Assembly: GCF_963921235.1 (NCBI RefSeq)
Contig: NC_086108.1
Coordinates: 52,826,001-52,890,000, forward strand
DNA length: 64,000 bases
Direction: 5' to 3'
Origin: Mobula hypostoma
Lineage: Eukaryota
This document shows, one piece after another, positions 3,601-56,059 of this stretch (the stretch's first letter is position 1; each line of letters opens with the position of its first letter). The notes below the pieces were generated by a model. It ran no database searches, was not told the origin of the DNA, and saw nothing but the letters and a program-made list of their open reading frames with translations. Both the position numbers and the translations under genes were made by a program.

Positions 3601-4088
3601 GGTTCTCAATCACCAAAAATCATCTCTCGAACTTCCCACACTATCCAAAATATGAGACTAATAAGAAATCTTAATTGAAAGAAGTAACATAGTGTGCAAT
3701 TTGTGTAGGAGTATACAATTATGTTTAGTGACAGGACAGAGATGTTCAGTAAATCAGTAATCCAATCTCTTGGTTTTCCCATAATAATATGCAAAACTGT
3801 GATTATACTTGATTACATGCCACATCTTCAGCGGGTCTTGGGGACCAGTGAAATAGGTAGAAATGAGGAGACATGTTTCAATTGTGGTCATTGCATAGTC
3901 ACCTCTGAACTTTAAGCTAATTTGTTTCATTACAAGTTCATTTATTCAACTATGTTTCGTGTGAGATGATTTTATGTAGAATCAGGAAAATCACAATGCT
4001 GGAAAACTGAAAGAGAAGTAGAACATGGTGGGAATGCAGTGTCTCTTAATCTGCATTTGTGAGAAAGGATTAATACTTTGTGACACAG

Positions 4089-4214
4089 GATATACTGCAG
4101 ATGCTGGAAATTTAGAACAATACACAAAATGTGTTGCAGGAGCTCAGCAGGTCAGGCAGTATCTATGGATGGGAATAAACAGTCGCCGTTTCGGACCAAG
4201 ATGCTTCATCAGGA
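4089..4214 (-). mobile_element. Short Penelope-like 3' end (pLTR) insertion with decayed hammerhead
   Basis: Homologous to the terminus of the adjacent PLE. Minus strand reads AGTC-CTGATGA-AGCATCTTGGTCC-GAAA-C-GGC-GACT. Flanked by ctttgtgacacag (4076-4088) and ctctgtgagacag (4215-4227). Confidence 0.75.
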
Positions 4215-4375
4215 CTCTGTGAGACAGCTGAATTAAATATTATCTATGATGTACAAAAATATTCAAATCTGATAACTCAAACACGAGGAATTCTGCAAAT
4301 GCTGGAAATTCAAGCAACACACATCAAAGTTGCTGGTGAACGCAGCAGGCCAGGCAGCATCTCTAGGAAGAGGTA

Positions 4376-4413
4376 TAGTCGACGTTTCGGGCCAAGACCC
4401 TTCATCAGGACTA
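4376..4413 (-). ncRNA. Minimal type I hammerhead ribozyme motif (PLE-associated)
   Basis: Minus strand: UAGUC CUGAUGA A GGGUC-UU-GGCCC GAAA C GUC/ GACUA. Perfect 5-bp stem I, stem II, intact core, and palindromic ACGU in place of stem III. Confidence 0.8.
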
Positions 4414-5471
4414 ACTGAAGGAAGAGCTAGTAAGAGATTTGAAAGTGGGAGGGGGAGGGGGAAGTCCAAAATGATAGGAGAAGACAGGAAGGGGAGGGAT
4501 GGAGCCAAGAGCTGGGACAGGTGATTGGCAAAAGGGATATGAGAGGATCATGGGACAGGAGGCCCAGGGAGAAAGAAAAGGGGAAGGGGGGGAGAAAAGC
4601 CCAGAGGATGGGCAAGGGGTATAGTGAGAAGGACAGAGGGAGAAAAAGGAGAGGGAGAAAGAATGTGTGTATATAAATAAATAACAGATGGGGTACAAGG
4701 GGGAGGTGGGGCATTAGCGGAAGTTTGAGAAGTCAATGTTCATGCCATCAGGTTGGAGGCTACACAGATGGAATACAAGGTGTTGTTCCTCCAACCTGAG
4801 TGTGGCTTCATCTTTACAGTAGAGGAGGCCATGGATAGACATATCAGAATGGGAATGGGATGTGGAAATAAAATGTGTGGCCACTGGGAGATCCTGCTTT
4901 CTCTGGCGGACAAAGCACTCGTGTTCAGCAAAGCGGTCTCCCAGTCTGCGGCGGTTCTCACTAATATATAGAAGGCCACATCGGGAGCACCGGACGCAGT
5001 ATATCTCCCCAGCCAACTCACAGGTGAAGTGTCGCCTCACCTGGAAGGACTGTCTGGGGCCCTGAATGGTGGTAAGGGAGGAAGTGTAAGGGCATGTGTA
5101 GCAATTGTTCCACTTACAAGGGGAAGTGCCAGGAGGGAGATCAGTGGGGAGGGATGGGGGGGGGGACGAATGGACAAGGGAGTCGCATAGGGTGCGATCC
5201 CCGTGGAAAGTGGGGGAAGGGAGGGAAAGATGTGCTTAGTGGTGGGATCCCGTTGGAGGTGGCGGAAGTTACAGAGAATAATATGTTGGGCCTGGAGGCC
5301 GGTGGAGTGGTAGGTGAGGACCAGGGGAACCCTATTCCTAGTGGGGTGGCGGGAGGATGGAGTGAGAGCAGATGTGCATGAAATGGGGGAGATGCGTTTG
5401 AGAGCAGAGTTGATGGTAGAGGAAGGGAAGCCCCTTTCTTTAAAAAAGGAGGACATCTCCCTCGTCCTGGA

Positions 5472-6796
5472 TGAGTTTAAGTTCCCTGTCCCCCACCGCT
5501 TTATTTTCACCATGGATGTCCAGTCCCTATATACTTCCATCCCCCATCAGGAAAGTCTCAAAGCTCTCCGCTTCTTTTTGGATTCCAGACCTAATCAGTT
5601 CCCCTCTACCACCACTCTGCTCCGTCTAGCGGAATTAGTCCTTACTCTTAATAATTTCTCCTTTAGCTCCTCCCACTTCCTCCAAACTAAAGGTGTAGCT
5701 ATGGGCACCATATGGGTCCTAGCTTGCCTGCCTTTTTGTTGGCTTTGTGGAACAATCGCTTCCTGCACATGTGCTGAGCTTGTTGATTTCATTAACTTTG
5801 CCTCCAACTTTCACCCTGCCCTCAAGTTTAACTGGTCCATTTCCGACACCTCCCTCCCCTTTAGATCTTTCTGTCTCTGTCTCTGGAGACAGCTTATCCA
5901 CTGATGTCTACTATAAGCCTACTGACTCTCACAGCTATCTGGACTATTCCTCTTCTCACCACCTCTTGCAAAAATGCCATCCCCTTCTCGCAATTCCTCC
6001 ATCTCCGCCGCATCTGCTCTCAGGATGAGGCTTTTCATTCCAGGACGAGGGAGATGTCTGCCTTTTTTAAAGAAAGGGGCTTCCCTTCCTCCACCATCAA
6101 CTCTGTTCTCAAACGCATCTCCTGCATTTCACGCACATCTGCTCTCACTCCATGCTCCCGCCACCCCACTAGAAATAGGGTTCCCCTGGTCCTCACCTAC
6201 CACCCCACCAGCCTCTGGGTCCAACATATTATTCTCCGTAACTTCCGCCACCTCCAACGGGATCCCACCACTTAGCACATCTTCCCCTCCCACCCCCCCC
6301 CGCTTTCCGCAGGGATCGCTCCCTACACGACTCCCTTGTCCATTTCTTCCCCCATCCCTCCCCACTGATCTCCCTCTTGGCACTTATCCTTGTAAGCAGA
6401 ACAAGTGCTACACATGCCCTTACACTTCCTCCCTTACTACCATTGAGGGCCCCAGACAGCCCTTCCAGGTGAGGCGACACTTCACCTGTGAGTCGGCTGG
6501 GGTGATATACTGCGTCCGGTGCTCCCGATGTGGCCTTCTATATATTAGCGAGACCCGCCGCAGACTGAGAGATCATTTTGCTGAACACGTGTGCTTTGTC
6601 CGCTAGAGAAAGCAGGATCTCCCAGTGGCCACACATTTTATTTCCACATCCCATTCCCATTCTGATATGTCTATCCACGGCCTCCTCTACTGTAAAGATG
6701 AAGCCACACTCAGGTTGGAGGAACAACACCTTATATTCTGTCTGTGTAGCCTCCAACCAGATGGCATGAACATTGACTTCTCAAACTTCTGCTAAT
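5472..6796 (+). pseudogene. Broken PLE RT + GIY-YIG endonuclease ORF
   Basis: Pieced together from track ORFs 5314-5904, 5904-6275 and 5974-6606. It has frameshifts and stops. LFVGFVEQS joins directly to ASCTCAELVDF at ~5757, with no YxDD motif between them. Confidence 0.85.
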
Positions 6797-7091
6797 GCCC
6801 CACCTCCCCCTCGTACCCCATCTGTTATTTATTTATATACACATATTCTTTCTCTCTCCTTTTTCTCCCTCTGTCCTTCTCACTATACCCCTTGCCCATC
6901 CTCTGGGTTTTTCTCCCCCCTCCCCCTTTTCCTTCTCCCTGGGCCTCCTGTCCCATGATCCTCTCATATCCCTTTTGCCAATCACCTGTCCAGCTCTTGG
7001 CTCCATTCCTCCCCCTCTTGTCTTCTCCTATCATTTTGGATCTCCCCCTCCCCCTCCCACTTTCAAATCTCTTACTAACTCTTCCTTCAGT

Positions 7092-7129
7092 TAGTCTTGA
7101 CGAAGGGTCTTGGCCCGAAACGTCAACTG
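7092..7129 (+). ncRNA. Degenerate hammerhead motif in the plus arm of the PLE
   Basis: TAGTC TTGACGA A GGGTCTTGGCCC GAAA C GTC AACTG. The core C3 is changed to T and stem I is weakened. Confidence 0.65.
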
Positions 7130-7547
7130 CACCTCTTCCTAGAGATGCTGCCTGGCCTGCTGCGTTCACCAGCAACTTTTATGTGTGTTGCTCAAATTTG
7201 ATAACTGCTTGTGTAGCATCTTAGCTACCAACCTGAATATTTTATGCCTCTGCCAATAATGCACATTGGATGCAGTATACTATTTACAAAATCCAGTAAA
7301 ATATGTCACCCAAACTATCAAATATCTGTCACCAACAAGGGGCAGTGTTTTGGCCTCATGGAAACACCACTACCTGCATGTTCCTCCAACTTGCACAAAA
7401 GATAACATAAGAAAATAAAAAAAAAGTCAGGTGTAGGTTATTCTCCTGTTAGGTCCTTGATTTTCTTAATAGCTAAAAATCTGTCATTCTTTATCAACTA
7501 AATCAAGTGGCTAGAAGTACTTCCACAAGCTTCCGCTAGAAGTACTG

Positions 7548-7648
7548 CAGATCCCCATGGAAGGCAGCTCCTCACCACCTTCCCAAGAGCAATTAGGGAT
7601 GACGATAGCAGCAATGCCCAGATCTCAACAAATGAATGAATGGAAAAA
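7548..7648 (+). mobile_element. 3' tail of an ancient CR1/L2-group LINE or its partner SINE
   Basis: AAGGCAGCTCCTCACCACCTTCCCAAGAGCAATTAGGGATG...AATGAATGAA resembles the tails at ~17780-17864, ~24270-24320 and ~39130-39220. Confidence 0.55.
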
Positions 7649-9094
7649 CTTGTTTAATTGGCTAATAACACTTCTTGATAAAGACAGGCTTCATGTCTCT
7701 GTAAAGGTTCATTTCAGCCTCAATTATACCACAGAGTAACAGCGAACAGAAGAATTCCTTGCCTCTGTCCACATTTAGCACACAAGCAATTAATAGTTTG
7801 TTTTAGAGTTGCAATAAACATTGTGGTAACTCACTGGCAGTCAGTTGTAATTGTGATCATGAATCAGCTCAATTGATAATCACAGTGAGCAAATCACCAT
7901 CAACTTAATGTTTTAATCCAATCTTGTTGAGCATGAATGGTTTATATTAAAAACAAGAAGGATTATGTTTTGTGTGTAGACAGCTGAGCATGTACAATTT
8001 CATCTTTTGATATGTTCAAACATTTTGTTCTTCTAATCATTGTATTAATTTGCTGAAGGCAACTTGCAACCATTTTCATCATGGATGTAATCATTTATAA
8101 TTTACAATCTGGAAATGCAAGTCTTTAAGTAAGAACAATAAAATACACCCAATTTATGAGGGACAAAATGTGAATGGGAGAGGCCAAGCTATGTTGAGAA
8201 ATTTAAATATTAACATCGGTCCAGAATAGAAATTTTAAATATATGATTACTAAAATCCTATTGTAATCATAGAATAAATATTAGGTACTGTTTCAAGGTG
8301 AGCTTCGGATATAGTTTTTTTTTACCAGTTCTATCAATTTACCTGAAGGCACTAAGGATGAAAATATCCTTTAATGATAGTAAATTATCAGCCTATTATA
8401 CACCTGCTTGGTTCTGTTTTCTGTTGCAGTCACTGGAAAATAAAATAAGGCAGTGTGTAGAAGGGGCTACTGATTTATTATAGTCTGTTTGTGCTATCAT
8501 CAAAGAATATCTCCCCCTATGACTCTTGCTGATGTACTGTTCCACAGATGCTGATAGCCTCCAGTGATTCATCCAAATAGTTGTTTATTGTGTGTAACCC
8601 AAGGCAGTGAGTGTTGTCTAGATTTTGAATCTCGGGGTAAAGCAAAATTCTACCCTCACCAAATGTGCATACACTCGTGTGCATAAGCTTTCATAATAGC
8701 AATCAAAAGGAAATCCTAGTTTGATTCTTTTCACTTTAATTTCCCAGTATATTGAAGACAACTGTTGACAGGCAGTTGAAATCTCAGCACAATCCATGAT
8801 AGGTGTGTAAACCAATGTAATAAAAGCAAGGGGCTAGGAATACTCATCAAATCAGGCAGCAGCAGTAGAGAGAGAAACAGAATTGATGTTCCAAGAAAAT
8901 GATCCAACACAACTAATGGATAAATGGAAGTAGTAGAGTAAGATAACTAACCAGTCCTCCTACAAATTTTTACAAATGTAAACCAAGATCTCTATTTTTG
9001 TTATAAGCACCAGTTATTGTAGTTGACAAAGAGAAAGATTCCACTGACCAGTTGACTGAGGAAATGGCAAATCAACTATAAATGAAATTCAAAC

Positions 9095-9325
9095 AACTTA
9101 ACATAGAACAATACAGACTCTTCAACTCACAATGCTTTGGAGATCATTTAACCTACTCCAAGATGATCCTAACCCTTCTCTTCCCCATAGCCCACCACTT
9201 TTTTCTTTCATTCATTGGCCCATCTAAATTCCCTAATTTACTTGCCTCTACCACCACCCCGACAGTGCGTTCTACACATCCACTACTCTGTGTATTTTTT
9301 TAAAAGCCCCCCCTCTGACATTCCT
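9095..9325 (-). mobile_element. Decayed CR1 3' end
   Basis: Starts AACATAGAACA (reverse of the TTCTATG tail) and resembles the reverse complement of the CR1 3' UTR at ~51500-51680. Confidence 0.55.
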
Positions 9326-9352
9326 CCCCTCCCCCCTTCTATAAAGTGCAGG

Positions 9353-9552
9353 TGAAATAAAAACAGAAAATGCTGGAAGCAGGCAACAGGTTAGACAGCA
9401 TTTCTGTCATGGGAACCAGTAAACATTTCAGGCCCAGAACCTTCATCAGAACTCATGATGAAGCAGCTCAGGCCTGAAACATTAACTATTTCTCTTGTCA
9501 CAGTTTCTGCCTGGTCTGTTGGATGTTTCCAGCATTTTCAGTTTTTAACTCA
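9353..9552. mobile_element. Palindromic mini-element made of two back-to-back PLE termini
   Basis: Left arm TGAAATAAAAACAGAAAATGCTGGAA...TTCATCAGAACT and right arm ATGATGAAG...TTCCAGCATTTTCAGTTTTTAACTCA are imperfect reverse complements. Two hammerhead remnants meet at ~9452. Confidence 0.75.
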
Positions 9553-10334
9553 AATCAGCTGTCAGAAACCATTACAAATTGCATACTTAGTTTTGCAAAA
9601 ACTTTAGGTAAAATTGTATACCAATATTATTTAAGTTGAAAGCTGGGTATTTGGGGAAGCACTTAGATTTGGGTAAGAAATTAGATGATGGGTGGAAACA
9701 AGAGATGAAAATACCTGGAAGCAAAGCAGGGGCAGTGCTCATTCACAATTAATTTGGTTTCAGAAACTCAATGTTTCCCCAATGAGCGGATATAAAATTC
9801 AAAGGAACAGTCAAATTGGAAGCAGTCAACCCAGAATTATGTGAGTGTATATTAGGAATTGAAATTTCATACAGTAAAAAATTCAGATTTCTGCATTAGG
9901 ATCAATGGAGAGTAAATATAATCTATAAACTGTACTGAGTATTATAGAGTGAAGTTGAAGACATGGGATTCAAAGTAGTGCAAGAATCACCAAAGCCAAC
10001 AGAATGGTGAACTATGATTTTATAATATAAATCAGAATACACTGCAATCAATCAGCAGAGAGCACACTTGGAACACCATGTTCATTTCTGATCAGACCAC
10101 ACCTTGAGCATTTGAACTCTATATCCAGTTCCAGTTAATTGTGCTTAATTTGGGCAACTGAGATTCAAAACATGCTTCCAAGCACTGAAAGAAAACTTGA
10201 GTATGATCCGCTTATTGGGGCAAATGAATAAATGCTTAATTCAAAAGGTAGTTTTTACAGAGAAGTGGAAAAGTGGGGTTTAGAGATGAGCAGATTTACT
10301 GAGAAAGCTCCAGAGCAAAGTAATGAGACTCCCT

Positions 10335-10920
10335 TGGCAGACAATGCTATCAACCAATACTTACTCTCCAACAACCTTTTTATCAATGTCCAACATGGAT
10401 TTTACTTGGACTATTCAGTTCTGGATCTTGTCACAGTCCTGGATCAAAGGTAGACCGTATAGCTAAATTCAGATATAAGTGAGAGTGCCTGCCCTTGACA
10501 TCATGGCAGCATTTCACAGAGTGTAACATAAAGGTATGGTGCAGCAATTGGCATTAAAAGGAAGATAAGTGGTTGCTTGTTGATGGAAAGCAGTCAATCT
10601 AATCCCAGAACATCACTGAAGTTGTTCTTCATTCAGTGCCTAAACCCAGCCATCTTCAACTGCTTCATAAATGATCTTCCTTTTATTCAAGGATAAGGAG
10701 CCACTTACTGATGATTGATGGTGTTTAAGTCCATTCAATACTCCTCAGCAAATGAATCACTCCATGCCTGCACGTAGCCAGACTGAGACAACGTTCAGGC
10801 AAGGAATGGTAAGTGGTAAGGACCATTTGTTCTACACAAGAGTGCCAGGCACTAACTACCTCCAATAAGATAAAATTTCAATGCCAACTTCCCTTGGCAT
10901 TGAAATCCATTATCACCACT
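10335..10920 (+). mobile_element. Ancient CR1/L2-group LINE, RT part (outer host of the nest)
   Basis: LDIMAAFHRV at 10494-10523 (decayed LDIxAAFDRV) and a downstream IFNCFINDLP-like segment. Resumes at ~17270. Confidence 0.65.
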
Positions 10921-12325: not shown

Positions 12326-13011
12326 AGGAGGGAGGAGAAGATGGCAGTGTGCGCAGCCATTTTGGTGATGATGTCTGTTATCTGTCAAGTAGGGGACCAT
12401 GCACAATTCTGATTTGATGGAGACAGACATGAGAGCACGGAGGAACATCTGGAAAACTTCTGAAATGCCCGCTTCGCTGTCGCTGCTACTGTGTGGTAAC
12501 TGGAATCTTCAGAGCTGAAAGCCCTGAAATTCTCGGCTTTGCGTGTTTCAGCGGCCAGGGAGAGGTCGAAGGCTGTCAGCAGTGGATGGCGCTCGGGAGA
12601 CTGTATCGGAGAGGCTGGTCAGAAGCTCGAAGTTTTCGGACAGATGGACTCAGTGTCAGCTGTGGTTGGCTGCTTCCAAGGCATCGGCAAGTTGACGGTG
12701 CCTGGAGGTTTATGGCAGGGAGTTTCTCCCTTTTGCCGCCTGCTATCGGGGACTCAGGAGTTGATCGACTCGGGTACTTTGAGACTTTTTTTTTACCGTG
12801 CCCATGGTCTGTTCTTCATCAAATTATGGTATTGTTTTGCACTGCTGTAACTATATGTAATAATTATGTGGTTCTGTCAGTGTTAGTCTTTGGTTTGTCC
12901 TGTTTTCTGTGATATCACTCCGGAGAAACATTGTATCGTTTCTTAATGCACGTATGCATTTCTAAATGATAATAAAAAGAGGATTGAGTGTTCTCATAAT
13001 CTAATCTAATC
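12326..13011 (+). mobile_element. ~690-bp non-autonomous retroelement (copy 1)
   Basis: Starts AGGAGGGAGGAGAAGATGG and ends AATAAAAAG...(TAATC)n. Splits the Rex1 RT at YK/F-ADD. A near-identical reverse copy lies at 28149-28830. Confidence 0.85.
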
Positions 13012-14033: not shown

Positions 14034-16709
14034 ATGAAAATGGCATAGGGTTCCTCGTCAACAAATCCATCAAGAACGCTGTCCTAGGATGCCAACCAGT
14101 GTCAAGCAGGCTCATGACCATCCGCCTGTGAGCAAAGCCATTCAACATCACAGTGGCACAAGTCTACGCCCCAACAACAGACTATGACGATGAACACACT
14201 GAAGAATTCTATAAGAAACTACAAGATGTCATCGACAAGGTGGACAAAAAAGATATTTTGATCATTCAGGGTGACTGGAATGCCAAGGTGGGCAGAGACG
14301 CACAAGATGATTGGGGAGATCTCATCGGCCCCTCATGCAATGACACCTCCAATGAGAGGGGACTATGCCTGCCAGAATTATAACAATATGGTGCTTTCGA
14401 ACACACTTGGAGAGCACCAAGCATCCCGAAGATGGACCTGGCATGCCCCCAGTGGTCAACATCACCAGATTGACTACATCCCAGTGCAAAAATGGCACAA
14501 ATCTGGTGTGAACAGATCGAAGACCAGAACATTCCCAGGAGCAGACGTGGGCAGTGACCATGACCTTGTCATGGTGAACATCAGAGTGCGCTTGAGGAGA
14601 ATCAACAAGTCAAAAAACAGCCGGCTGAGATTTGACCTTGAAAAACTGAAAGACCCCACCATCTCTGAAGAATTTCAGGCAGCAATTGGGGGAAAGTTTG
14701 CACCAATACTCCTCCTTGATGAAAACCTGGAGACCATCACAGATAACTTTAACACAGTGATGACGGAAACAGCAAGCAAGATTCTGGGGGAAAGCCACCG
14801 CAAATCTAAACCATGGGTCACTAACAAGATACTGGATATACATGACAGAAGAAGGAAATTAAAGAAAGATAAAAACACAGCAGAGAGAAGAACAAAATAC
14901 AGGAAAATCAACAAGGAAATCAGGAGGGAAATGAAGGAAGCAAAGCAAAGATGGACAGCCGAACAATGTGCCGACATTGAAGACAGCCTCTCCAACAATA
15001 ACACAAAGAAGGCATTCCAACTGGTGAAAGATCTTACCAAAGAAAAACAAGCCAAAGTAAACACCATCCAAGACAAAAATGGCAAAAGTCTCACGGAAGA
15101 AAAGGAAATAATGGAAAGGTGGACAGAGTACTGTTCAGACCTGTACAACTACCAGAGCAAAGGGGATCCAAGCGTGCTGAATGTGCAGGAATCTTCCAAT
15201 GAGGATGACTATCCAATCATGCATGAAGAAGTTGAAGCTGCAATACGATCACTGAAGTGCAGGAAGTCAGCAGGAGCTGACAACATCCCTGCTGAACTGC
15301 TGAAGCATGGAGGAGAGGCCACGAAGGACATGCTTACCACCATCTGCAATAGGATCTGGCAGGCGGGTGAATGGCTGACACCTTGGACTCAGTCGCTGAT
15401 CATTGTGCTTCCCAAGAAAGGCAATCTCCAACTTTGCCAGAATTACCGTACCATCAATTTAATCAGCCATGTAAGCAAGGTAATGCTCAGAATCATCTTG
15501 AACAGACTGAGACCTCAGGCAGAAGACATCATTGCTGAGGAACAAGCAGGCTTCCGTAAGGGCAGAAGCACCACTGAGCAGATTTTCAACCTTCGCACCC
15601 TCTGTGAGAAACACCTTCAGCACCAGAGAGAGTTCTACCACGTCTTCATAGACTTCAAGAAGGCATTTGATAGAGTCTGGCATGATGCCTTATGGGCCAC
15701 CATGAAGAAATTCAACATGGGGCAGAAACTGATTCATACAATCCATCAGCTTTACGCCAAGGCAACCAGTACAGTACTCACTCAGGACACCATCCGGGAG
15801 TGGTTCCACACCTCTGTAGGAGTCTGTCAGGGCTGCCTCCTCTCCCCCACTCTCTTCAACGTCTTCCTGGAACGAATCATGAGTGTTGCCCTTGAAGATC
15901 ACATGGGTACAGTCAGCATCGGAGGGAGGAACATCACAAACCTAAGATTTGCTGACAACATTGATGGACTTGCAGGAAAAGAGGATGAACTGGCCAACCT
16001 GGTCAGCCATCTTGACAGAGCCTCCACAAAGTCTGGAATGGAAATAAGTGCCGAGAAAACCAAGCTCATGGCAAATGCCAACAGTGCCATCACAACAGAC
16101 ATCTCAGTCCATGGTCAGAAACTTGAGACAGTGCAGCAGTTCAAATACCTGGGGGCAATCATCAGTGATGAAGGATCAAGACCAGAAGTGCTGGCAAGAA
16201 CCGGACAGACAATGACTGCACTATCCAAACTCAAGACAATATGGAGGGACAGCAACATCACCATGAAGTACAAGATCAGACTCCTGTGTGCATTGGCATT
16301 CTCCATCTTCCTGTACGCATGTGAGACGTTGACCCTCACAGCAGAGCTACAGAGGAAGATACAGGCATTGGATATGAGATGCTATCGCAACCACTTGGGC
16401 ATCTCATACTTGGACCACATCACAAACCAGCAGTTCTGCAAGACCATCCAGCACCACATTGGCTCCCATGAAGACCTTCTCACAACGGTGAAGAAAAGAA
16501 AGCTGAGATGGTACGGCCACGTAACAAGATCCAGTTGTCTTGCAAAGACCGTTCTACAAGGAACTGCGGAGGGGAAAATAAGGAGAGGTAGACAGAGGAG
16601 AAGATGGATGGGCAACATTAAAGAATGGACAGGGAAAACATTTGCGGTGACCCAGGCTCTGGCACACAACTGCAACAGAAGGAACAGACTGGTGCAAAGC
16701 TTGTCATGA
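14033..16709 (+). pseudogene. RTE APE-endonuclease/RT ORF, lightly damaged
   Basis: Track ORFs 14153-14383 and 14271-16709 (812 aa). TGA stop at 14129, frameshift near 14375, and catalytic FADD reads FADN (15948-15959). Confidence 0.9.
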
Positions 16710-27314: not shown

Positions 27315-30300
27315 AAAAATATTATTGGCAGGAGGGTGGGAACCAGAGTGATGGGGCTGAGGGTGGGGCAATTAGATGCAGTGTAGAGTGAGATTGTGAG
27401 GAAGGTCAGGCAAATGACAAGGCAAAATTGCTGTCAATGGGATGAGATAAAGTGTAACGGGGACCAAACTCAAAAAGGGTGATGAATACAGGACTGGAAG
27501 TGTTATATTTGAATGCACACAGTAGACAGAATGAGGTAGATGATCTTGTAGTGCAGTTAGAGATTGGCAGGTATGATGTTGTAGGCATCACTGAGTTATG
27601 GCTGAAAGATCATAGTTGGGAGCTTAACATGCCAGGATACACACTGTATCGAAAGGACATGCAGGTAAGCAGAGGGAGTGGGATAGCTCTGTTGGTAAAA
27701 AAAAATGAAATCAAAACCCTAGAAAGAGGTGACATAGGATCAGAAGATAGAGTCCTCGTGGGTAGAGTTAAGAAACTGGATGAAAAGACCCTGATGGGAA
27801 TTATATACAGACCTCTGAATGGTAGCCATAACGTGGGGTACAAATTACAATGGATGATAAAAAAAGCATGTAAAATCATGGGGATTTCAATATGCAGGTA
27901 GGTTGGGAAAATCAGGTTGGTGCTGATTCACAAGAGAAGGAATTTGTAGAAATCATATGAGATGTCTTTTTGGAACAGTTTGTGTTTGAGCCCAGTCAGG
28001 GAAGAGCAATTCCAGATTGGGTGTTACATAATAACCCAGATTTGATTAGGAAGCTTAGGAGGTTGTGATCGTAATATGATAGAGTTCACCCTGAAGTTTG
28101 AGGAGAAGCTGAAATCAGATGTATCAGCGTTACAGTGGAGTAAAGGGAATTAGATTATGAGAACACTCAGTCCTCTTTTATTGTCATTTAGAAATGATAC
28201 ATGCATTAAGAAATGATACAATGTTTCTCCGGAGTGATATCACAGAAAACAGGACAAACCAAAGACTAACACTGACAGAACCACATAATTATAACATATA
28301 GTTACAACAGTGCAAAGCAATACCATAATTTGATGAAGAACAAACCATGGGCATGGTAAAAAAAAAGTCTCAAAGTACCCGAGTTGATCAACTCCCAAGT
28401 CCCCGATAGCAGGTGGCAAAAGGGAGAAACTCCCTGCCATAAACCTCCAGGCACCGTCAACTTGCTGATACCTTGGAAGCAGCTGACCACAGCCGACACT
28501 GAGTCCATCCGTCTGAAAACTTCGGGCTTCCGACCAGCCTCTCTGATACAGCCTCCCGAGCGCCATTATCTGCCGAGCGCCTTCGACCTCGCCCTGGTCG
28601 CTGAAACACGCAAAGCCGAGGATTTCGGGGCCTTCAGCTCTAGAGATTCCGGTTACCACACAGTAGCAGCGGCAGCGAAGAGGGCATTTCAGAAGTTTTC
28701 CAGATGTTCCTCTGTACTCTCATGTCCGTCTCCATCAAATCAGAATTGTGCACGGTCCCCTACTTGACAGATAACATCACCGAAGTGGCTGCGCGCGCTG
28801 CCGTTGCACCACCATCTTCTCCCCCCTCCTGGGAGGCATGAGAGAGGAACAGGCCAAAGTTGAATGAAAGAGGACACTAGCAGGGATAATGGCAGAACAG
28901 TAAGGTTGCTGTTTCTGGAGAAAATTTGGAAGGTGCACAAAAGATACATCCCAAAGATGAAGAGGCTGACAGGGAACGTCAAAGACCGCATCAAGGGAGG
29001 GTACATAATAGAGCAAAAATTAGCAGGAAGATAGAGGATTGAAAAGCTTTTAAAACTAACAGAAGGCAACTAAAAAAGCTATAAAGAGAGGAAAGATGAA
29101 ATATGAAGGTAAGCTTCTCATTAATATAAATGAGGATACAAAAGTGTCTTTGGATATATAAAAAATAAAAGAGAGACAAGAGTGGATATCAGACTGCTGG
29201 AGAAGTAGTAATGGAGGACAAACTGAATAAGTATTTTGTGTCCATCTCCACTGTGGAATACACTAACAGAATGCCAGAAATGTGAGTGTGGATGCTATTA
29301 CTAAGGAGAAGGTACTTAGGAAAGTGAAAAGTCTGAAGGTAGATAAGTCAGCTGGACCAGACAGATTACATTCCATGATTCTGAAAGAGGTATTGTAGCT
29401 GACGAGATTGAAGAGGTATTAGTAAAGATATTTCAAAGAAAGGAAGGAGGCAGAAGAACGGATATTATAGGCCAGTTAGCTAGCCTGACTTCAGTATTTG
29501 GAAAGATATTAGAGTCTATTATTAAGGGTGAGGTTTTGGGGTACTTGGAGCCACATGACAAAATAGGTCAAAGTCAACATTGTTTCCTTAAGGGGAAATC
29601 TTGCCTGACTAATCTGTTGGAACTCTTTGAGGAAATAAGAGGCAGGATAGATGAAGGAGAGTCAGGGGATGTTGTTTACTTGGATTTTCAGAAGGCCTTT
29701 GACAAGGTTCCTCACATGATGCTGCTTAACAAGATTAGAGCCCATGGCATTCCATGGCATTTTCTGGTTGGCTGCTGGTGACTGGTGTTGTGCTGCAGAG
29801 GTCAGTGTTCAGACTGTTACTTTTCATGTTATATGTCAGTGATTTGGATAAAGGAATTGATGACTTTGTGGCCAAGTTTGCAGATGATACGAAAATAGGT
29901 GGTGGGGCAGGTAGTGTTGAGGAAGCAAGGTGTCTGCAGAAAGACTTATCTGGAGAGACTGGGCAAAGAAGTGGCAGATGGAATATAGCGTAGGGAAGTG
30001 CATAGTCATGCACTTTGGTAGAAGGAGTAGAGGCAGGGACTATTTCCTAAATTGGGAGAAAATTGAAAAATTAGAAGTGCAAAGGTACTTGGGAGTTCTC
30101 GTGCAGGATTCCCTAAAGGCTAACTTGCAGGTTGAGTCAGTTGTAAGGAAAGAAAATGCAATGTTAGCTTTCATTTCTAGGATACAAAGTCAAGGATGTA
30201 ATGCTGAGGCTTTACAAGGCATTTGTCAAACTTGCACTTGGAATATTGTCAGCAGTTTTGGGCCTTTTATCAAAGAAAAGATGTTCTGGCATTGGAGAGG

Positions 30301-43413: not shown

Positions 43414-43540
43414 TGTCTGTCTGTCTGTATCTTGTTTTATGGCGGTTGGCATCCAGCTTAATGGAGCATTACCGCCACCCTCTGCTCCAGAATGTGCACT
43501 AAACATACATTCTAAATCCCTTCACCCAATCGCGCGCGTG

Positions 43541-43606
<66 letters not shown>

Positions 43607-46607: not shown

Positions 46608-46746
46608 GGCATCACTGAAGGGAAAAATTAAACTTCTTCAGGGTAGGCATCCCTGATGAAGGGTCTCAACCCAAAATACTGACTATTTACTCTTTTCCAT
46701 AGATGCTGCCTGGCCTGCTGAGTTCCTTCAGCATTTTGTCTGTGTG
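46608..46746 (+). mobile_element. PLE-derived mini-insertion with decayed hammerhead
   Basis: Perfect TSD GCTACCAGAGTA (46596-46607 and 46747-46758). CTGATGAAGGGTCTCAACCCAAAA is followed by the PLE terminus AGATGCTGCCTGGCCTGCTGAGTTCC. Confidence 0.82.
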
Positions 46747-46889
46747 GCTACCAGAGTATTCAGCCAAAGATAACTGCAGCACACACTAATATAACAGTAG
46801 TTTGATCATGGATCTTGATGGGAACAGATCAAGATTTGGAGAATTTACACTGAGCACCATGTAGGCAACTCCAGGTCTCAAATTCTACT

Positions 46890-48206: not shown

Positions 48207-48609
48207 TGTCCTGTGGGGGAGGGGGGGGCATGGCTTATTCTGATTGTCAAAAATCGCTTTGTCGTGATTGGTTAGTTTAGAAACTGCAGCTACAGCTGCT
48301 TTTCCCATTGGTTAGCTGCCTGGTGTCCAGTTTCAAATATCCTGGGTATAAAATAGCATGAGTAAGAGGCTTGTTCTCTCTTCCTTTGTTTATAGCAATG
48401 TGGTGCACATAACCATTGGAAAGGTATGCTCTGTGCGTGCTTTTAGTTAAGTATGTTTTTTGAATATTCAGCTTTGTAGTGTCTGTAACTAGGGAAAATG
48501 AATGTTTGGTCGAATATTTTCTGTTTGTAAATAAATGATTAATATACTTATTCGCAGTCAATGTCTTCTGTCTCATGTGCCAAACCCGCAAACCTGATTC
48601 AACGTTACA
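48207..48609 (+). mobile_element. Solo LTR inserted in an old CR1 3' remnant
   Basis: TGT...ACA ends with 5-bp TSD CCCAC (48202-48206 and 48610-48614). Two ATTGG boxes, TATAAAA at 48347-48353, AATAAA at 48530-48535. Confidence 0.8.
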
Positions 48610-48963
48610 CCCACTGGGTGAATATTTTTATTCTCATCTTTATCTGGAAGTGACAAAACTCTTTATTTGTCTAAGACTGTGATTGCTAGTTTCAAACACC
48701 CAATCCAGGAGAAAATATCATCTCAACATCCATTCTTTCCCTTGACAGCAAATATCACTACACTCTCTAAGAAGGGAGGGAGGCAGAAGAAAGAAAATTA
48801 TAGACCAGTTAGCCCAATTTCAGTGGTTAGAAAGATTTTGGAGTCCATTATTAAGGATGAGGTTTTGGGGTACTTGGAGGCACATGATAAAATAGGCCAA
48901 AGTCAGCAGGGTTTCCTTAAGGGGAAATCTTGCCTGACAAATCAGTCGGAAATCTTTGAGGAA

Positions 48964-51680
48964 TGTCTGGTGAGTGTGCTAGGCTTTAGATGTTTCAAAA
49001 AGAACAGAGAGGGAGGCAAAAGAGGTGGGGCATGACATTGCAAATTAGGGAAAGTGTCACAGCTGCAGAAAATGAAGAAGTCATGGAGGGATGGTCTACT
49101 GAGACAGTGTGGGTGGAAGTCAGAAACAGGAAAGGAGCAATAACTTTACTGGGTGTTTTTATAGATCCCCCAATAGGAACAGGGATATCGAGGAACAGAT
49201 TGGAGGGCAGATTCTGAAATGGTGCAATAATAATCGGGTTGTTGTGATGGGAGATTTTAACTTTCCTAATATTGATTGGCATCTCCTTAGTGCAAGGGGT
49301 TTAGATGGAGTGGAGTTTGTAAGGTGTGTTCAGGAAGGTTTCCTGACGCAATGTGTAGATAAGCCAACTAGAGGAGAGGCTGTACTTGATCTGGTATTGG
49401 GAAATGAACCTATACAGGTGTCAGATCTCTTGGTGGGAGAGCATTTTGGAGGCAATGACCATAACTTTATTTCCTTCACCATAGCGCTGGAGAGGGTTAG
49501 GAGCAGACAATTTGGAAAAACACTTAATTCGGGTAGGGGGAAATATGATACTATTAGGCAGGGACTTGGGAGCCAATGTTTTCAGGGAAATGCACGACAG
49601 AAATATGGTAAATGTTCAGGGAACATTTGCATGGTGTTCTGCATAGGTATGTTCCATTGAGGCAGGGAAAGGATGGTAGGGTAAAAGAATCATAGCGTAC
49701 AAAGCATGTAGAAAATCTAGTTAAGAAGAAAGGTAAAGCTTATGCAAGGCTCAAGAAACTTGGTACTGTTAAAAAATTATAAGGGTGCTCGGAAGGAGCT
49801 TAAGAATGGAATTAGGAGAGCTAGAAGGGGCATGAGAAGGCCTTGGTGAGCAGGATTAAGGAAAACCCCAAGGCATTCTACAAGTATGTGAAGAGCAAGA
49901 GGATGAGCTGTGTGAGAATAGGACCAATCAGGTGTGATAGTGAAACCGTGTGCCTGGAGATGGAAGAGTTAGCAGAGGTACTTAATGAATACTTTGCTAC
50001 AGAAATCACCAAGGAAAAAGACCTTGGCAATTGTGGGGATGACTTACAGCAGAATGAAAAACTTGAGCATATAGACATTAAGAAAGAGGATGTGCTGGAG
50101 CTTTTAAAAAGCATTAAATTAGAAAAGTCACCCTGACTGGATGAGATGTACCCCAGGCTACTGTGAGAAGTGAGGGAGGAGATTGCTGAGCTTCTTGCCT
50201 TGATCTTTGCATCATCAATAGGGACAAGAGAAGTACCAGAGGATTGGAAGGTGCAAATATTTTTCCCTTGATCAAGAAAGGGAGTAGAGATAACCCAGGA
50301 AATTACAGACCAGTGACTCTGACTTCAGTGGCGGGCAAGTTGTTAGAGAAGATCCTGAGAGGCAGAATTTATGAACAATTGGAAAGGCATATTATGATTA
50401 GGAATAGTCAGTGTCGCTTTGTCAAGGGCAGGTCGTACCTTACAAGCCTGATTGAATTCTTTGAGGATGTAACAAAACACATGGATGAAGGTAGAGCAGT
50501 GGATGTAGTGTATATGGATTTCAGTAAGGCATCTGATAAGGTTCCCCATGCAAGGCTCCTTCAGAAAGTAAGGAGGTATGAGATCCAAGGAGACCTTGCT
50601 TTGTGGATCCAGAATTGGCTTGTCCACAGAAGACAAGGGGTGGTTGTAGATGGTTGTAGGTGGTTGCATGGAGGTCGGTGACCAGTGGTGTTCCGCACAG
50701 GAATCTGTTTTGGGACCACTGCTCTTTGTGATTTTTAGAAATGACCTGGATGAAGAAGTAGAGGGGTGGGTTAGTAAGTTTGGTGATGACACAAAGGTTG
50801 GGGGTGTTGTGGATAGCCTGGAGGGTTGTCAGAGGTTACAGCTGGACATCGATAGGATGCACAACTAGGCTGAGAAGTGGGAGATGGACTTCAACCCAGA
50901 TAAGTGTGAAGTGGTTCATTTTGATAAATCCAATTTGAAGACAGCATATAATATAAACAGTAAGACTCTTGGCAGTGTGGAGGATATGAGAGATCTTGGG
51001 GTCCGTGTTGATAAGACACTCAAAGCTGCTGCACAGGTTGACAGTGTTGTTAATAAGGCATATGGTGTGTTGGCATTCATCAACCGTGGGACTGAGTTCA
51101 AGAGGCATGAGGTAATGTTACAGCTATATAAGACCTTTTTCAGACCCCACTTGGAGTACTGTGTTCAGTTCTGGTCACCTCACCATAGGAAGGATGTGGA
51201 TACTATAGAGAGAGAGTGCAGAGGAGATTTACATGGATTTTGCCTGGATTGGAGGGCGTACCTTATGAGAATAGGTTGAGTGAACTTGGCCTCTTTTCCT
51301 TGGAGTGATGGAGGATGAGAGGTGACCTGACAAAGGTGTATAAGATGATGAGAGGCATTGATCATGTGGATAGCCAGAGGCTTTTTCCCTGGGCTGAAAT
51401 GGCTTACATGAGGGGGCATAGTTTTAAGGTGCTTGAAAATAGGTTCCGAGGGTACATTTTTCACACAGAGAGGGATGGGTGTGAGGAATTCACTGTTGGC
51501 GGCAGAGGATACAATAGGGTCTTTTAAGAGCCTCTTAGATAGGTACATGGAGCTTAGAAAAATAGAGGGCTATACACTAGGGAAATTCTAGGCAGTCTCT
51601 AGAGTAGGTTACATGGTTGGCACTATATTGTGGGCCGAAGGGCCTGCAATGTGGTGTAGATTTCTATGTTCTATGTTCTA
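48964..51680 (+). mobile_element. CR1 (second subfamily), APE to tail
   Basis: YRSPN, VMGDFNFPNIDW, NYRPVTLTS, VYMDFSKASDKVPH, KFGDDTK, and a (TTCTATG)n tail. Confidence 0.92.
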
Positions 51681-52468
51681 AATAACAGACAGGATAGACA
51701 AGGGAGAGACAGTGGATATTGTTTACTTGGAATTTCAGAAGGCCTTTGACAAGGTGCCACACCTAAGACTGCTTAATAAGCTAAAAGCCCACGGTATTAC
51801 AGGAAGGATACTAGCATGAATAGAAGATTGGCTGATTGGTAGCAGGCAAAGAGTGGAAATAAAGGGGCCTTTTCTGGTTGGCTACTGCTGACTAGTGGTT
51901 GTGCTACAGGGGTCAGTATTGGGACCACTTCTTTTCATGTTCTGTGTCAATAATTTGGATAAAGAAATTGATGGTTTTGTGGCCAAGTTTGTGGACAATA
52001 TGAAGATAGGTGGAGAAGCAGGAGGTGTTGAGGAAGCAGGTGTCTGCAGAGGGACTTAGACAGTTTGGGAGAATGGGCAAAGAAGCAGCAAATGGAATAT
52101 AGTGTAAAGAAGTGCATGGTCATACACTTTGGTAGAAGGAATAAAGGCGTGGACTATTTTCAAAATGGGGAGAAAATTTTAAAAATCAGAGGTGCAAAGG
52201 GATTTGGCAGTCATCGTGCAGGATTTCCCTGAAAAGTTAACTTTGGTTGGTGGTAAGGAAGGCAAATGCAATATGACCATTCATTTTGGGAGTACAGAAG
52301 CAAGGACGTAATGCTGAGGCTTTGTAAGGTATTGGTCAGACCATATTTGGTGTATTGTGAGCACCTCTGGGGCCCCTTACCTAAGAAAAGTTGTGCTGAC
52401 ATTGGAGGCGATCCAGAAGAGGTCCATGAGAATGATCCCGAGAATGAAAGGGTTAACATATGAGGAGC

Positions 52469-53271
52469 AACACACGCAAAATTCTGGAGGAACTCAGCAG
52501 GTCAGGCAGCATCTTCTTAAGGATTGGAAAGAAAGTGAGAAGATGTCAGAATAAAAAGGTGGGAGCAGGGAAAGGAGGATAGCTAGAAGTTGATAGGTGA
52601 AGCCAGGAGGGTGGGAAAGGAAGGAATCTGATAAGAGTGGAAGACTGGACCATGGGAGAAAGGGAAAGAGGAGGCGACCCAGGGAGTCGTGATAGGCAAG
52701 TAAGAAGAGGTAAGAGTCCAGAGCAGGGATTAGAAGAAGAGGGAAGGGGATGGGATTTTTTTACTGGAAGGCGAGATTGAAAATCACACCATCAGTTTGG
52801 AGGTGCTGCTCTTCCATGCTGAAGGTGTCCTCATTGTGGCACAAGAGGAGTCCATGGTTCGACTTGTCGGAAGGGGAATGGGAAGTTTCGCTTTTGGCAT
52901 ATGGAACAGAGGTGTTCAACAAAGCAGTCCCCCAATTTACGCAGATCTCACCAATGTAGAGAAAGTCGTATCGGGAACACTGGACACAATAGATGACCCC
53001 AGCAGATTCACAGGTGCCTTACCTGGAAGGACTGTTTGGGGCCCTGAATGGAGGTGAGGGATGAGATGAACGGACAGGTGTAGTAATTTGGCCACCTGCA
53101 AGGATAAGTGCGTGGTAGGAGATTAGTGGGGAGGGATGAATAGACAAGGGAATCATGGAGGGAGTGATCCTTATGGAAAGCGGAGGGAAGAGGGGAGGTA
53201 AAGATGTGTTTGGTGGTAGGATCCTTTTGGAGATGGCAGAAATTGTGGAGAGTGATGTGTTGGATATGGAG
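52469..53271 (-). mobile_element. PLE 3' fragment (GIY-YIG region plus terminus), decayed
   Basis: TSD AACATAT(G/C)AGGAGC (52455-52468 and 53272-53285). Homologous to 4310-5290; the hammerhead segment is missing. Confidence 0.85.
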
Positions 53272-53855
53272 AACATATCAGGAGCGTTTGATGGCTCTGG
53301 GCCTTCACGTGCTGGAATTTAGAACAATGAGGTGGAATCTCATTGAAACCCATCAAATAGAATAGGCCAAGATAGAATGGATGTGGAGAAGATGTTTCCT
53401 GTAGCTGGGGAATTCAGGACCAGAGGTCACAGCCTCAGAATAGAGGGACATCCATTTGGAATGGAGATGAGGAAACATTTCTTTAGCCAGAAGGTAGCGA
53501 ATCTGTGGAATTCATTGCCACAGACAGCTGTACAGACCAAGAGATTGGGTATATTTAAGGCAGATGTTGACAGGTTATTGATTACTCAGGGCATCAAAGG
53601 TTACGAGAAAGCGGGAGAATGGGGTTGAGAAGGATAATAAATCACCCATGATGGAATAGTGGAGCAGACTCAATGGGCCAAGTGGCTAACTCTGCTTCTA
53701 TGTCTTATCGCCAAAGGCCCATTAGAATTTTCTATCTTACAGTGAGGTGACCTCTCATTCTTTTAAATTCGAGAGAGAATAGACTGATTCTAGTTAAATC
53801 TCCCCTTATGACAAAATTAGCAATCCACCTCCAATTCCGACAGCATCTTTTTAAT

Positions 53856-54013
53856 GCAGGTCAGGTGACATCTATGGAAAGGAGTAAACAGTTGATGTTT
53901 CAGCTGAAACTTTTCATTAGGACTCCTAGTGAAGGCCCTGATACGTCGACTGTTTATTCTTCTCTATAGATGATGCATGACCTGCTGAGTTCCTTTAGCA
54001 GTTCGTGTGTGCT
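53856..54013. mobile_element. Palindromic PLE-terminus mini-element
   Basis: GCAGGTCAGG...TAAACAGTTGATGTTT...TCATTAGGACT is followed by its imperfect reverse complement. Flanked by ATCTT(T/A)TTAAT (53845-53855 and 54014-54024). Confidence 0.78.
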
Positions 54014-54124
54014 ATCTTATTAATCCCAACCCTTCAACCCTAAAATGATCCATTTACTCCTAGTCCCTGGTATCTGTCTGTTCACAAATTCTCAATGCAT
54101 GTCTTTCAGTATTAGGTAGCTTAT

Positions 54125-54290
54125 GATGGATTGTCAGAGGCTCTGTACTCAAAAGAGCACCTGATTCCTCTTACTTGGTGCAGAGCTGGACCCTGAGCTG
54201 CTAGAATGGAGATTTACCAAGGTATTGAGATGCCAGACTGTGAAAGGAGCCATTGACTGCACCCATATCAGACTCAGAGCCCTCATATGT
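54125..54290 (+). pseudogene. PIF/Harbinger transposase fossil
   Basis: VKGAIDCTHIRLRA at 54240-54281 contains the GAIDCTH first-Asp motif of Harbinger/HARBI1. The upstream frame is shifted. Confidence 0.6.
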
Positions 54291-55405
54291 TCACAGAATA
54301 AAATGATGTTCACTGCCACAGTGGCCCTGATTATTCTCCTCTTCTGACAGTTATTCTGTAGAGAACGTTGGCTAACAGCTTTGTGCAGTTCAACACATTC
54401 CTCGGTTCTGCACCCATGTATCAGAGTGAGCATGTCAATTCAGGGATACCTGACCTCCCAGTCCAACATTAGATTCAGAAATATGTACCTAGCTCTGCTG
54501 TTTCATCAATGTAGCACAATATTGAAACGTTCATTGGAAATAGTTTTTATTTGATTTTGTTTTGTTCTTAATTAATGGATGTTTCATATGTCTTTAAATA
54601 AAATATTATTTTAAATGTTTTTGTTTTTTTTACTATTTCAATTGCTTTTCGATTTTTCTGATCATCAGAGACAATTAGAAACAGTTGGAAAGGCCTTTGA
54701 CAACATGATCCATTAGGGCAGTGGGGGACAATGCCCCAGGATCTGCCATCTGAGGCACATTTGCCGCTTGCGGTTAGCTTCATTTGGTTAGACAGCAATG
54801 GAGGTGAACTCTGGAGCCTGATTTGTCCCAAGGGCTGTAAAAAGATAATTGTGAGCGCTGGGATTGTGGGGAATTGAATGCAAGATGCAGGCCTCCTTGA
54901 GCTTGGCCCATTGTACAACGTGTCTGCAACCATGGCCAGAGGATAACAATAATCTTTTTTGGGAGCAGTATTATTACCTTCAAAATGCCACGTTTCAATG
55001 TCAGAGCAAATGCGAACATGGTAAGAATCAATGTTCTACAGCCAATGAAACAGACTATGTCTTAAAGTAACATGGTCTGGACAGTGTACACAGCATTCAA
55101 AAGCTAAGTTTTGTAGCTACTGGTTGTAAAAGGCTATTTTATTGTGGGAAACTCACTGGAATCCTCAGAGTACAACTCCTGAAAATGATGGAGTGCATAA
55201 AGCAATGTAACTCCATCAACAGTCAAGAGGCTCAACACAAGCCAGAGTAAGGGGACTGGCTTATGGACACACCATCCTGACCCACTGACTCTGCCAGCTT
55301 GCCATGCAGCAAGGGTGCAAGATCTAACATTAAAGATGCACATCATCAATGTGTCTTGGATTATTGTTTGCCCCTCCCAAAGATGCATTCCCTACTGTGC
55401 AGATG

Positions 55406-56059
55406 CAGACATCCCACCCTGCAAAAGCTCATTTCAGGGAGGTAGCATCATCAATTTGCGGGAGACTCCCGGAACTTCTGGGAGAGGTGGGATGTCTGCA
55501 ATAGAGTAGCTCCTTAGCAGCTATCCAGTTAGTTTCAATAACACAAAAATAACCTGCTGAGTTCCTCCAGCGCATTGTGAGTGTTAGTTTAAATAATGTT
55601 AGCTACGCTAATGAACAAATGACACCTATTAAACTCACCTCAACATGTCTTTTACAGTCTTAACCCACCATGGGCAATAGAAAAGTCACTGTTGCAAACA
55701 GTGCAGCGAGCAACACTGTCATTATTTTCACCCCTATTAGGCAGGGGTACACTTTCGCGTAGTCTGGGGTGATGTACGTTTTATATTTTCTTTTTTTGGA
55801 ACACTCTGACACTCTGACTTTTTTTGGAACTCTCTCGCTCTTGCTCTCTCTCTCGCGCTCTCTCTCTTGTGGTTGCTCTCACTCGCGCTTGCTGTCTCAC
55901 GCTTGCTTTCTTGCTCTTGCGCTCGCTCTTTCTCGCGTGTTCTCTCACGCTCACTCAAAAAAATCAATTTCCGGGACATTGTATATAATTTGCGGGCATC
56001 AGGGAACCACTATTAATATGCGGGAGACTCCCGGAACTTCCAGGAGAGGGGGATGTCTG
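55406..56059. mobile_element. hAT-like non-autonomous DNA transposon
   Basis: TIRs CAGACATCCC / GGGATGTCTG with CAGATG on both flanks. The palindrome CGGGAGACTCCCG occurs twice, and there is a CT-rich internal tract at ~55830-55950. Confidence 0.75.
55542..55582. mobile_element. ~40-bp PLE-terminus micro-insertion nested in the hAT-like element
   Basis: ACCTGCTGAGTTCCTCCAGC...TGTG is the PLE extreme 3' end. Flanked by GTTAGTTT(C/A)AATAA (55528-55541 and 55583-55596). Confidence 0.7.

Follow-up and report, generated by a model that had tools for sequence, protein, structure and literature searches.

Penelope-like elements (PLEs) that encode an endonuclease (EN+ PLEs) are described as units with 5' truncation, a partial tandem that forms a pseudo-long terminal repeat (pLTR), an adjacent inverted and truncated copy, and a tail of 30-40 bp on one side only (PMC8557442, PMC3846280). 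Solo pLTRs and palindromes at inverted junctions are mentioned as well (PMC3846280). The minimal hammerhead ribozymes (min-HHRs) of metazoan PLEs combine a CUGANGA and GAAA core with a helix I of 4-5 bp, an extra base before helix II and a palindromic 15.2-16.2; they occur mostly as single motifs, with some opposite-strand pairs, and have been read as probably truncated PLEs (PMC4209133). The PLE protein of Poseidon from Anolis (PAc) nicks the two target strands, extends both of them and primes internally at two RNA sites that bound the tail, all independently of ribozyme cleavage (PMC11167929). Non-long-terminal-repeat (non-LTR) retrozymes are by definition tandem, every unit bearing a ribozyme, and accumulate small linear and circular RNA (PMC7229834; bioRxiv 10.64898/2026.07.22.740005). 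The present analysis concerns a stretch of 64,000 nucleotides of the Mobula hypostoma genome (NC_086108.1, positions 52,826,001 to 52,890,000; hereafter the window), in which five short insertions, or stubs, consist only of the terminus of a hammerhead-bearing PLE, and which was compared with copies sampled across the genome.

The stubs are 5'-truncated copies of the PLE end, either single-arm or head to head. Like EN+ PLEs, the family has head-to-head arms, a tail on one arm, target-site duplications (TSDs), a partial tandem inside a 13-nt TSD (locus L061), and a terminus that leads into the start of the open reading frame (ORF). Unlike the described EN+ PLEs, about half of the young insertions comprise only 100-165 nt per arm, with their ends clustered at helix I of the hammerhead; such clustering was not found in the passages of PMC8557442 and PMC3846280 that describe EN+ PLEs. 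Breakpoints are not mapped in PMC4209133, nor 5' ends of PAc in the main text of PMC11167929, and no map of PLE breakpoints at the ribozyme edge was found in searches of the openly accessible literature. We estimate a probability of about one half that PLE insertions are internally primed and that their ends pile up at helix I because the cDNA runs off an RNA that starts there.

The hammerhead resembles the described min-HHRs: helix I is short, an extra base precedes helix II, helix II opens with a G-C pair, and the palindromic ACGU lacks loop 3. It differs from the motifs of S. mansoni, in which helix II has 7-8 bp (PMC4209133), by a predicted helix II of about 4 bp. As in PAc, there are two 3' ends about 35 nt apart, lying about 100-135 nt behind the ribozyme; both strands appear to be used, judging here from the arm pattern, and cleavage is apparently unnecessary (PMC11167929). 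Unlike PAc, the element has a Neptune-like C-x4-C-x2-C linker, and its young family has an in-frame stop before the tail. With the non-LTR retrozymes the stubs share a type I hammerhead, the lack of an ORF, an origin from a PLE terminus and long TSDs, but they lie scattered through the genome as single or inverted copies whose ends are not at the cut site.

Positions are numbered from the A of AGTC in the 5' strand of helix I (+1), directly before the CTGAnGA core, and the predicted cut follows +32. The sample comprised 160 evenly spaced 10-kb loci (1.6 Mb) and the window, in which an iterated model of the terminus detected 330 arms, with none in reversed sequences; head-to-head pairs hold 104 of them. 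Extrapolation to the whole genome (3.48 Gb) gives about 690,000 terminus arms. Several PLE subfamilies are represented, each with an alignable pyrimidine-rich untranslated region (UTR). Exact ends were counted in 130 insertions of the young family, 45 from the random sample and 85 from the top hits of three terminus-only searches; 9 of the 139 initial rows were excluded before counting (6 second arms, duplicated locus or ambiguous, and 3 cut by the locus edge). The end of an insertion is its furthest 5' extent. Two loci, L233 and L272, were counted as single-arm, although an inverted arm was later seen further off. Copies of the young family are 98-100% alike, and the parent PLE is a high-copy, recently active element.

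Among the 115 young insertions that reach the first bases of helix I, 26 end in the interval -2..+4 (0.038 per nt). The background rate at -31..-700 is 0.0012-0.0014 per nt, and the hotspot exceeds it about 27-fold per base. It is alike in both samples (8/36 random, 0.037 per nt; 18/79 top-hit, 0.038) and is seen in single-arm young copies alone, where 14 of 82 end within it. The modal ends in young insertions are +2 (13 insertions), +1 (5) and -2 (4). Shoulders at 0.007-0.010 per nt reach from +14 to -30, an interval in which 58 of 126 young insertions end, and beyond -30 the rate equals the background. The 6-nt window was picked by a scan that the simulation repeats, and none of 20,000 uniform simulations equalled the pile-up. 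The original prediction, that the ends of the stubs mark a boundary and not scattered truncation points, is thereby borne out as a real breakpoint hotspot; the smooth distribution named as its negation gives way to a sharp peak in the sampled genomic copies. Nor does the edge simply mark the place where alignment to the 3' UTR fails, since the UTR of young copies aligns well upstream of it: over the upstream 300 nt, 26 copies form one cluster, and long copies are 86-97% identical. In old short copies (n=37) the match to the consensus falls from 0.78 at +4 to 0.35 at -1, while in old copies that bear the UTR (n=61) it is 0.84 at -1.

Simple cleavage does not account for the boundary, as had been foreseen: only 1 of 57 random arms starts in +30..+36, around the cut site, and the peak lies at -2..+4. 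The edge does lie upstream of the GUC cut, at a distance of 28-32 nt and not the approximately 35 nt first given. Cleavage at another triplet near +1 was rejected because the sequence lacks a helix I partner for it. A strict TSD scan of 162 mostly old copies yielded 15 TSDs, too few to map old ends; in six of them the left copy ended within -10..+35, where about two would be expected at -10..+39 from mismatched pairs.

Other end positions were also considered. A smaller cluster of ends at -26..-30 falls at a second initiator-like sequence, TCAAATC (L205, L225, L245, L133, L161, L294, L305 and L313), and marks the sharp upstream limit of the hotspot. A sub-peak at -14, suggestive of a branch-point stop, shrank when subfamily consensuses were used and was rejected. 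The random sample also showed an apparent cluster at -530..-560; each set of top hits had at most one end there (-539, with an earlier reference).

The pieces of PLE terminus in the window, with their TSDs, are as follows.

4089..4216, minus strand: single-arm stub that belongs to an older subfamily, begins at +1 and ends within the tail (terminus model 1-115, E 6e-26).
4075-4088/4214-4227: TSD of the 4089 stub, 14 nt with 2 mismatches; it takes in the element's first 3 nt.
9353..9552: two stubs head to head, from an older and divergent subfamily, one arm starting at +1 (9453, minus strand) and the other at +4 (9454, plus strand).
46608..46746, plus strand: tail-less stub from +4 (46652), with 44 nt of junction filler before the core.
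46596-46607/46747-46758: TSD of the 46608 stub, 12 nt, exact.
53856..54013: head-to-head stub pair with its junction at 53924, minus arm +1..+70, plus arm +3..~+100.
53845-53855/54014-54024: TSD of the 53856 pair, 11 nt with 1 mismatch.
55542..55582, plus strand: 41-nt stub, ~+65..+100 and a short inverted piece, no ribozyme (terminus model and sequence).
55528-55541/55583-55596: TSD of the 55542 stub, 14 nt with 1 mismatch.
52465..52515, minus strand: additional stub, +52..+102, within a LINE-like (long interspersed nuclear element) repeat (terminus model).
8810..8893, minus strand: additional old stub, +24..+107 (terminus model E 2e-5).

The terminus model matches all five stubs first noticed, and four of the five have TSDs of 11-14 bp; no convincing TSD was found for the pair at 9353-9552. 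Four begin or invert at the 5' edge of the hammerhead, namely at +1 (4216), +1/+4 (9453/9454), +4 (46652) and +1/+3 (53924). On these points the original prediction stands. The last two entries in the list were absent from it, and both start away from the hammerhead edge. The stub at 4089 retains the ribozyme core, but its GUC site reads GGC, so its ribozyme is predicted to be dead. The filler at 46608-46651, between the TSD and the core, consists of a short inverted piece of the core and a repeat of target sequence; we take it to resemble templated insertions from end joining.

It had been suggested that a hammerhead-headed RNA of 100-130 nt is itself a mobile unit, a non-autonomous retrozyme-like system. 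In such a case a 100-135-nt RNA, or a hairpin pair, would be an independent element carried by the PLE enzyme. The great abundance of the copies (extrapolation gives about 46,000 young insertions bounded by the edge) would suit this idea, as would the finding that short or inverted arms are nearest neighbours in 56 of 72 cases against 36 +/- 7.6 after shuffling (1 of 500 shuffles), and PLE-derived retrozymes and solo monomers have been reported (bioRxiv 10.64898/2026.07.22.740005). The clustering of nearest neighbours, however, traces to an old subfamily of mostly long copies; differences between long and short copies of old families arise only through it, and there is no short-only variant. 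In the young family no column separates the 26 long from the 19 short or inverted arms at p<0.01, short and long copies share subfamily variants, and near-identical top-hit sets contain both, which leaves the short copies without the diagnostic mutations of an independent family. Their 5' ends and tails vary. Upstream flanks, compared in 406 pairs, revealed no shared leader; sequence is shared in two of them, in the first case because of an inverted arm, in the second weakly and at a distance from the junction. Same-strand PLE sequence was found upstream of none of 18 single-arm edge copies. Tandem arrays are likewise lacking: there are 11 same-strand neighbour pairs among 234 arms, only one pair (L047) clusters by shared flank, and all five stubs are non-tandem. 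Nor should its own cut be able to release a unit that has a single ribozyme and begins 32 nt ahead of that cut.

The stubs thus form no ribozyme-bearing tandem units, are not bounded by two cleavage sites, and have neither the fixed shared 5' end nor the diagnostic mutations expected of elements like short interspersed nuclear elements. The absence of private variants and of tandems, together with unique flanks and variable 5' ends and tails, speaks against a self-propagating unit or retrozyme, which we regard as very unlikely; with high confidence, the stubs arise de novo at each insertion. The feature is a real, quantifiable trait of a known kind of element and not a new mobile system. At three other loci (L294, L295 and L317) there are short, internally deleted tandem units with a hammerhead per unit (~-204..+309, 513 bp; ~-128..+300), which come nearer to the definition of a retrozyme than do the stubs in the window.

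The structure of the insertions points to the way in which they form. There are two 3' end sites, at about +100 (no tail) and about +135 (tail), and TSDs are mostly 13-14 nt, with a peak at 14 nt (20/58). The adjacent inverted truncated copy and one-sided tail of EN+ PLEs are both present: one arm is tailed and the other tail-less in 12/12 random and 33/33 top-hit pairs, so that each of the 45 young pairs has exactly one tail. Arm lengths within a pair correlate (Spearman 0.60, 45 pairs), with the tailed arm longer in 25 of 45, and similarity is 96.4% for the two arms of one pair but 92.8% for arms of different loci (30 pairs). An adjacent TSD was found in 13 of 29 edge copies versus 3 of 33 copies truncated further up (p 0.003). 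By analogy with PAc, each event would comprise a first priming at one of the sites and a second at the other, after which the cDNAs are either joined head to head or reduced to one by loss. At one locus (L254) a long inverted pair is joined on a short palindrome without a loop, which fits annealing of two cDNAs over fold-back.

On the model of PAc biochemistry (PMC11167929), the protein would nick both strands and prime internally at the +100 and +135 sites of a terminus with which the transcript that bears the ORF would also begin. If the primed RNA had its start at the initiator-like YCAGT/TAGT of helix I, only 100-165 nt would be left to copy. The two cDNAs would then be joined at their 3' ends, often via a few matching bases, to give a hairpin, and loss of one cDNA would give a single stub. 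Ribozyme cleavage would be unnecessary in this route.

Several sequence features coincide at the edge: the 5' strand of helix I, a YCAGT/TAGT that resembles the initiator consensus, a pyrimidine tract with CAG that resembles a splice acceptor, and the loop of a weak alternative hairpin. Among the possible explanations an RNA start is favoured because of the single-base sharpness of the peak, the sharp limit at -30, the greater frequency of adjacent TSDs at the edge, and a weak excess of an extra G. This G precedes +1 in 6 of 10 junctions without an explanation by flanking homology (p 0.03, post hoc), and would fit a copied cap.

Several observations weigh against run-off from such a start. When the 62 junctions in -30..+17 are taken together, G shows no clear enrichment (19/62 versus 13/45 further up). 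The modal end is +2 and not +1, and at least three of the inverted +2 calls (L163, L264 and L268) rest on a shared GAC of 3 nt. The 85 top hits among the 130 young insertions are BLAST hits that were required to carry the tail, not a random draw. Copies primed on the ORF side were assembled from 37 of 40 tail-to-ORF matches, after exclusion of the locus used as query and of two matches that were inner members of full tandems; 26 of them reach +15 (L296 was placed beyond +15 by eye), of which 19 pass -30 and 12 pass about -340. None of these 26 ends at +1/+2, versus 18 of 115 terminus-primed copies (p 0.04; p 0.16 for the wider interval -2..+4). The RNAs that yield ORF-bearing copies therefore mostly extend past the edge, and run-off needs a second class of RNA. 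The ORF-side result fits either a separate class of edge-starting RNA without the 3' terminus or release of the enzyme after a held domain has been copied. The initiator-like edge is unchanged in an old subfamily with A at +9, which nevertheless has 13 long and 3 short or inverted copies, against 24 long and 47 short or inverted in its sister subfamily with T at +9 (difference p 7e-4, post hoc). Transcription of D. virilis Penelope begins some 120 nt upstream of helix I (PMC2377424, PMC4209133). Contigs from four sequencing runs that are presumed, though not recorded, to be RNA cover the element and weigh on neither side.

The A-at-+9 loci, which include L051, L054, L075, L079, L088, L133, L179 and L183, provide a natural control for the hotspot, and a further subfamily, c1, is represented by five long arms and no short one. 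Seven of the 37 ORF-side copies start at +33..+61 (L282, L283, L289, L291, L298, L302 and L311). An exact start at the predicted cut (+33) was observed in one of these, L282, and in a random TSD-flanked stub (L154, at 7115). Starts at +33..+61 may possibly be a trace of in vivo cleavage on longer RNAs; self-cleavage of a min-HHR is expected from a dimer or with the aid of protein.

The ORF-side copies and the A-at-+9 subfamily bear directly on a second explanation, in which the same de novo products are made on a template RNA that continues upstream, and the enzyme releases, or the cDNAs anneal, once the protein-held domain from hammerhead to tail has been copied. Helix I, perhaps paired in a ribozyme dimer, would then be the template boundary. 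This would account for a sharp peak only in copies primed in the adjacent terminus, for shoulders on both sides of it, for the loss of the hotspot that accompanies a change of one core base, and for the reuse of the GTC/GAC near-palindrome at +2..+9 in junctions; the PAc protein, moreover, requires the initial 172 nt of its ORF RNA and helps the ribozyme to fold (PMC11167929). A folded barrier, however, would first be met near +37, folding predictions give weak structures that do not surpass those of shuffled sequences (z -1.4 to +0.75), and single-base sharpness with clean TSD-flanked ends fits a physical RNA end more simply. Release at helix I is the main rival, though less probable than run-off. 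The simpler idea of the original prediction, that reverse transcriptase (RT) stalls at the folded ribozyme, conflicts with the position of the peak, as ends would be expected at about +37, the first contact with helix I, and not at +1/+2. Template switching once the entire motif has been copied may still apply, and an RNA start at the edge was no part of that prediction.

The acceptor-like sequence at the edge raises the possibility of splicing. D. virilis Penelope has its start at 371 and an intron at 416-491 (PMC2377424) that ends at helix I (PMC4209133). If the edge were likewise a 3' splice acceptor (a branch-like CTNAC, a pyrimidine tract and CAG|TTAG|), the stubs would derive from processed RNA. 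The acceptor-like sequence is common to the four subfamily consensuses. Ends at -2 and +3 come directly after its two AGs, and of three single-arm copies with their end at -2, two abut the TSD. The cDNA of a spliced RNA should nevertheless contain an upstream exon, whereas the single-arm edge copies have neither same-strand PLE sequence upstream (the 0/18 above) nor a leader shared among the 406 flank pairs. TSDs lie 0-8 nt from the edge, and no GT..AG joint to the edge was found among the 15 joints listed (438 others were unlisted). We consider splicing unlikely.

The hairpin at the edge raises the further possibility that the cDNA passes the edge and folds back, pairing UTR pyrimidines with core purines around a loop at -2..+4, and is then cut in the loop or self-primed. 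In the young family both the RNA and the DNA hairpin are predicted to have their loop exactly at -2..+4, no single-arm copy ends at -3..-9, and self-priming has been proposed for PLE inversions (PMC3846280). The DNA fold, however, reaches only about -5 kcal/mol with an unstructured centroid, and is predicted to be stronger (-7.8 vs -5.3) in the subfamily without the hotspot. A fixed first arm also predicts that one arm is always longer, which the 25 of 45 pairs with a longer tailed arm do not bear out. Fold-back thus appears highly improbable.

The parent element is represented in the window by a young insertion.

4278..7191: young PLE insertion, two 5'-truncated arms head to head, 93% alike.
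4281-5471, minus strand: tailed arm of this insertion, with C-terminal ORF remains.
~5480-7191, plus strand: tail-less arm of this insertion, with C-terminal ORF remains.
4263-4277/7192-7206: TSD of this insertion, 15 nt.
4377..4412, minus strand: minimal type I hammerhead with intact core (sequence, compared with PMC4209133).
7093..7128, plus strand: second hammerhead copy, predicted to be inactive; its core reads UUGA in place of CUGA, and helix I contains a mismatch.

Both arms carry the C-x4-C-x2-C linker, a GIY-YIG-like end and a pyrimidine-rich 3' UTR. The hammerhead at 4377-4412 has a helix I of AGUC/GACU, CUGAUGA, the extra A, a 4-bp helix II and GAAAC-GUC without loop 3. It was identified by eye against the description of min-HHRs (PMC4209133), a scan of the window with Rfam at gathering thresholds having given no match, hammerhead included; judged by these described features, it is a minimal PLE hammerhead. 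The strict pattern of core and helix I is intact in 21 of 87 top-hit loci.

A fuller copy of the same young family was found at L061 (1353-5214), where a full partial tandem lies inside the 13-nt TSD in the order pLTR (starting about 250 nt before the ribozyme), tail, ORF of about 3.1 kb, 3' UTR and tail-less terminus. The partial tandem that forms the pLTR, with the terminus leading into the ORF, is therefore present at this locus, and the terminus runs through the tail into the ORF there and at 37 further loci. The ORF is broken by two frameshifts into a 612-aa frame and two frameshifted pieces. EN+ PLEs are defined by a single ORF in which a PLE-type RT is followed by a GIY-YIG endonuclease; Pfam gave no RT match to this ORF and only a sub-threshold GIY-YIG (E 0.11), and Atlas places it in DUF8422 clusters at 0.96-0.97, without a name. 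The PLE label thus rests on the architecture and on motifs read by eye; PMC8557442 names the DKG motif, and the identification of the remaining RT and endonuclease motifs is tentative. The C-x4-C-x2-C linker of the window insertion and of L061 falls within the C-x2-5-C-x-x-C Zn-finger-like pattern that lies between RT and endonuclease in the Neptune clade, a likeness confined to the sequence motif.

An ATG near +50 of the old c2 consensus begins a frame that continues across the tail (L061 1657-1780 and subfamily consensuses). In the equivalent frame the young family has a TGA just before the tail (5/5 translated young sequences), so that the ORF would start later or be read through. An older PLE ORF fragment at 52912-53271 (minus strand) is about 72% identical to the young element. 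The genome is rich in LINE-like repeats. At 14262-16709 (plus strand) an open frame of 815 aa with an RVT_1 domain (E 4e-38) is apparently a little-decayed LINE ORF, presumably RTE-like, and two 90% identical copies of a 680-bp repeat lie in opposite orientation at 12326-13005 and 28149-28830.

The hotspot bears on what PLE hammerheads do and on how pLTRs, inversions and tails arise, questions raised in PMC8557442 and PMC11167929. A base-precise, countable hotspot in a recently active family offers a direct test of whether the edge is an RNA start, an enzyme boundary or a splice site, and solo or inverted hammerhead stubs should not be counted as retrozymes. As a tentative proposal, the tens of thousands of stubs may record a fixed boundary of the PLE cycle at helix I, at which a dimeric enzyme would prime both strands from two sites of one RNA; the hammerhead would act as a capped start or a telomerase-like template boundary and not as a cutter, and a subfamily differing by one core base would escape it. 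If true, a single mechanism would account for the tail on only one side, for the inverted pLTR and for the abundance of solo minimal hammerheads across animal genomes.

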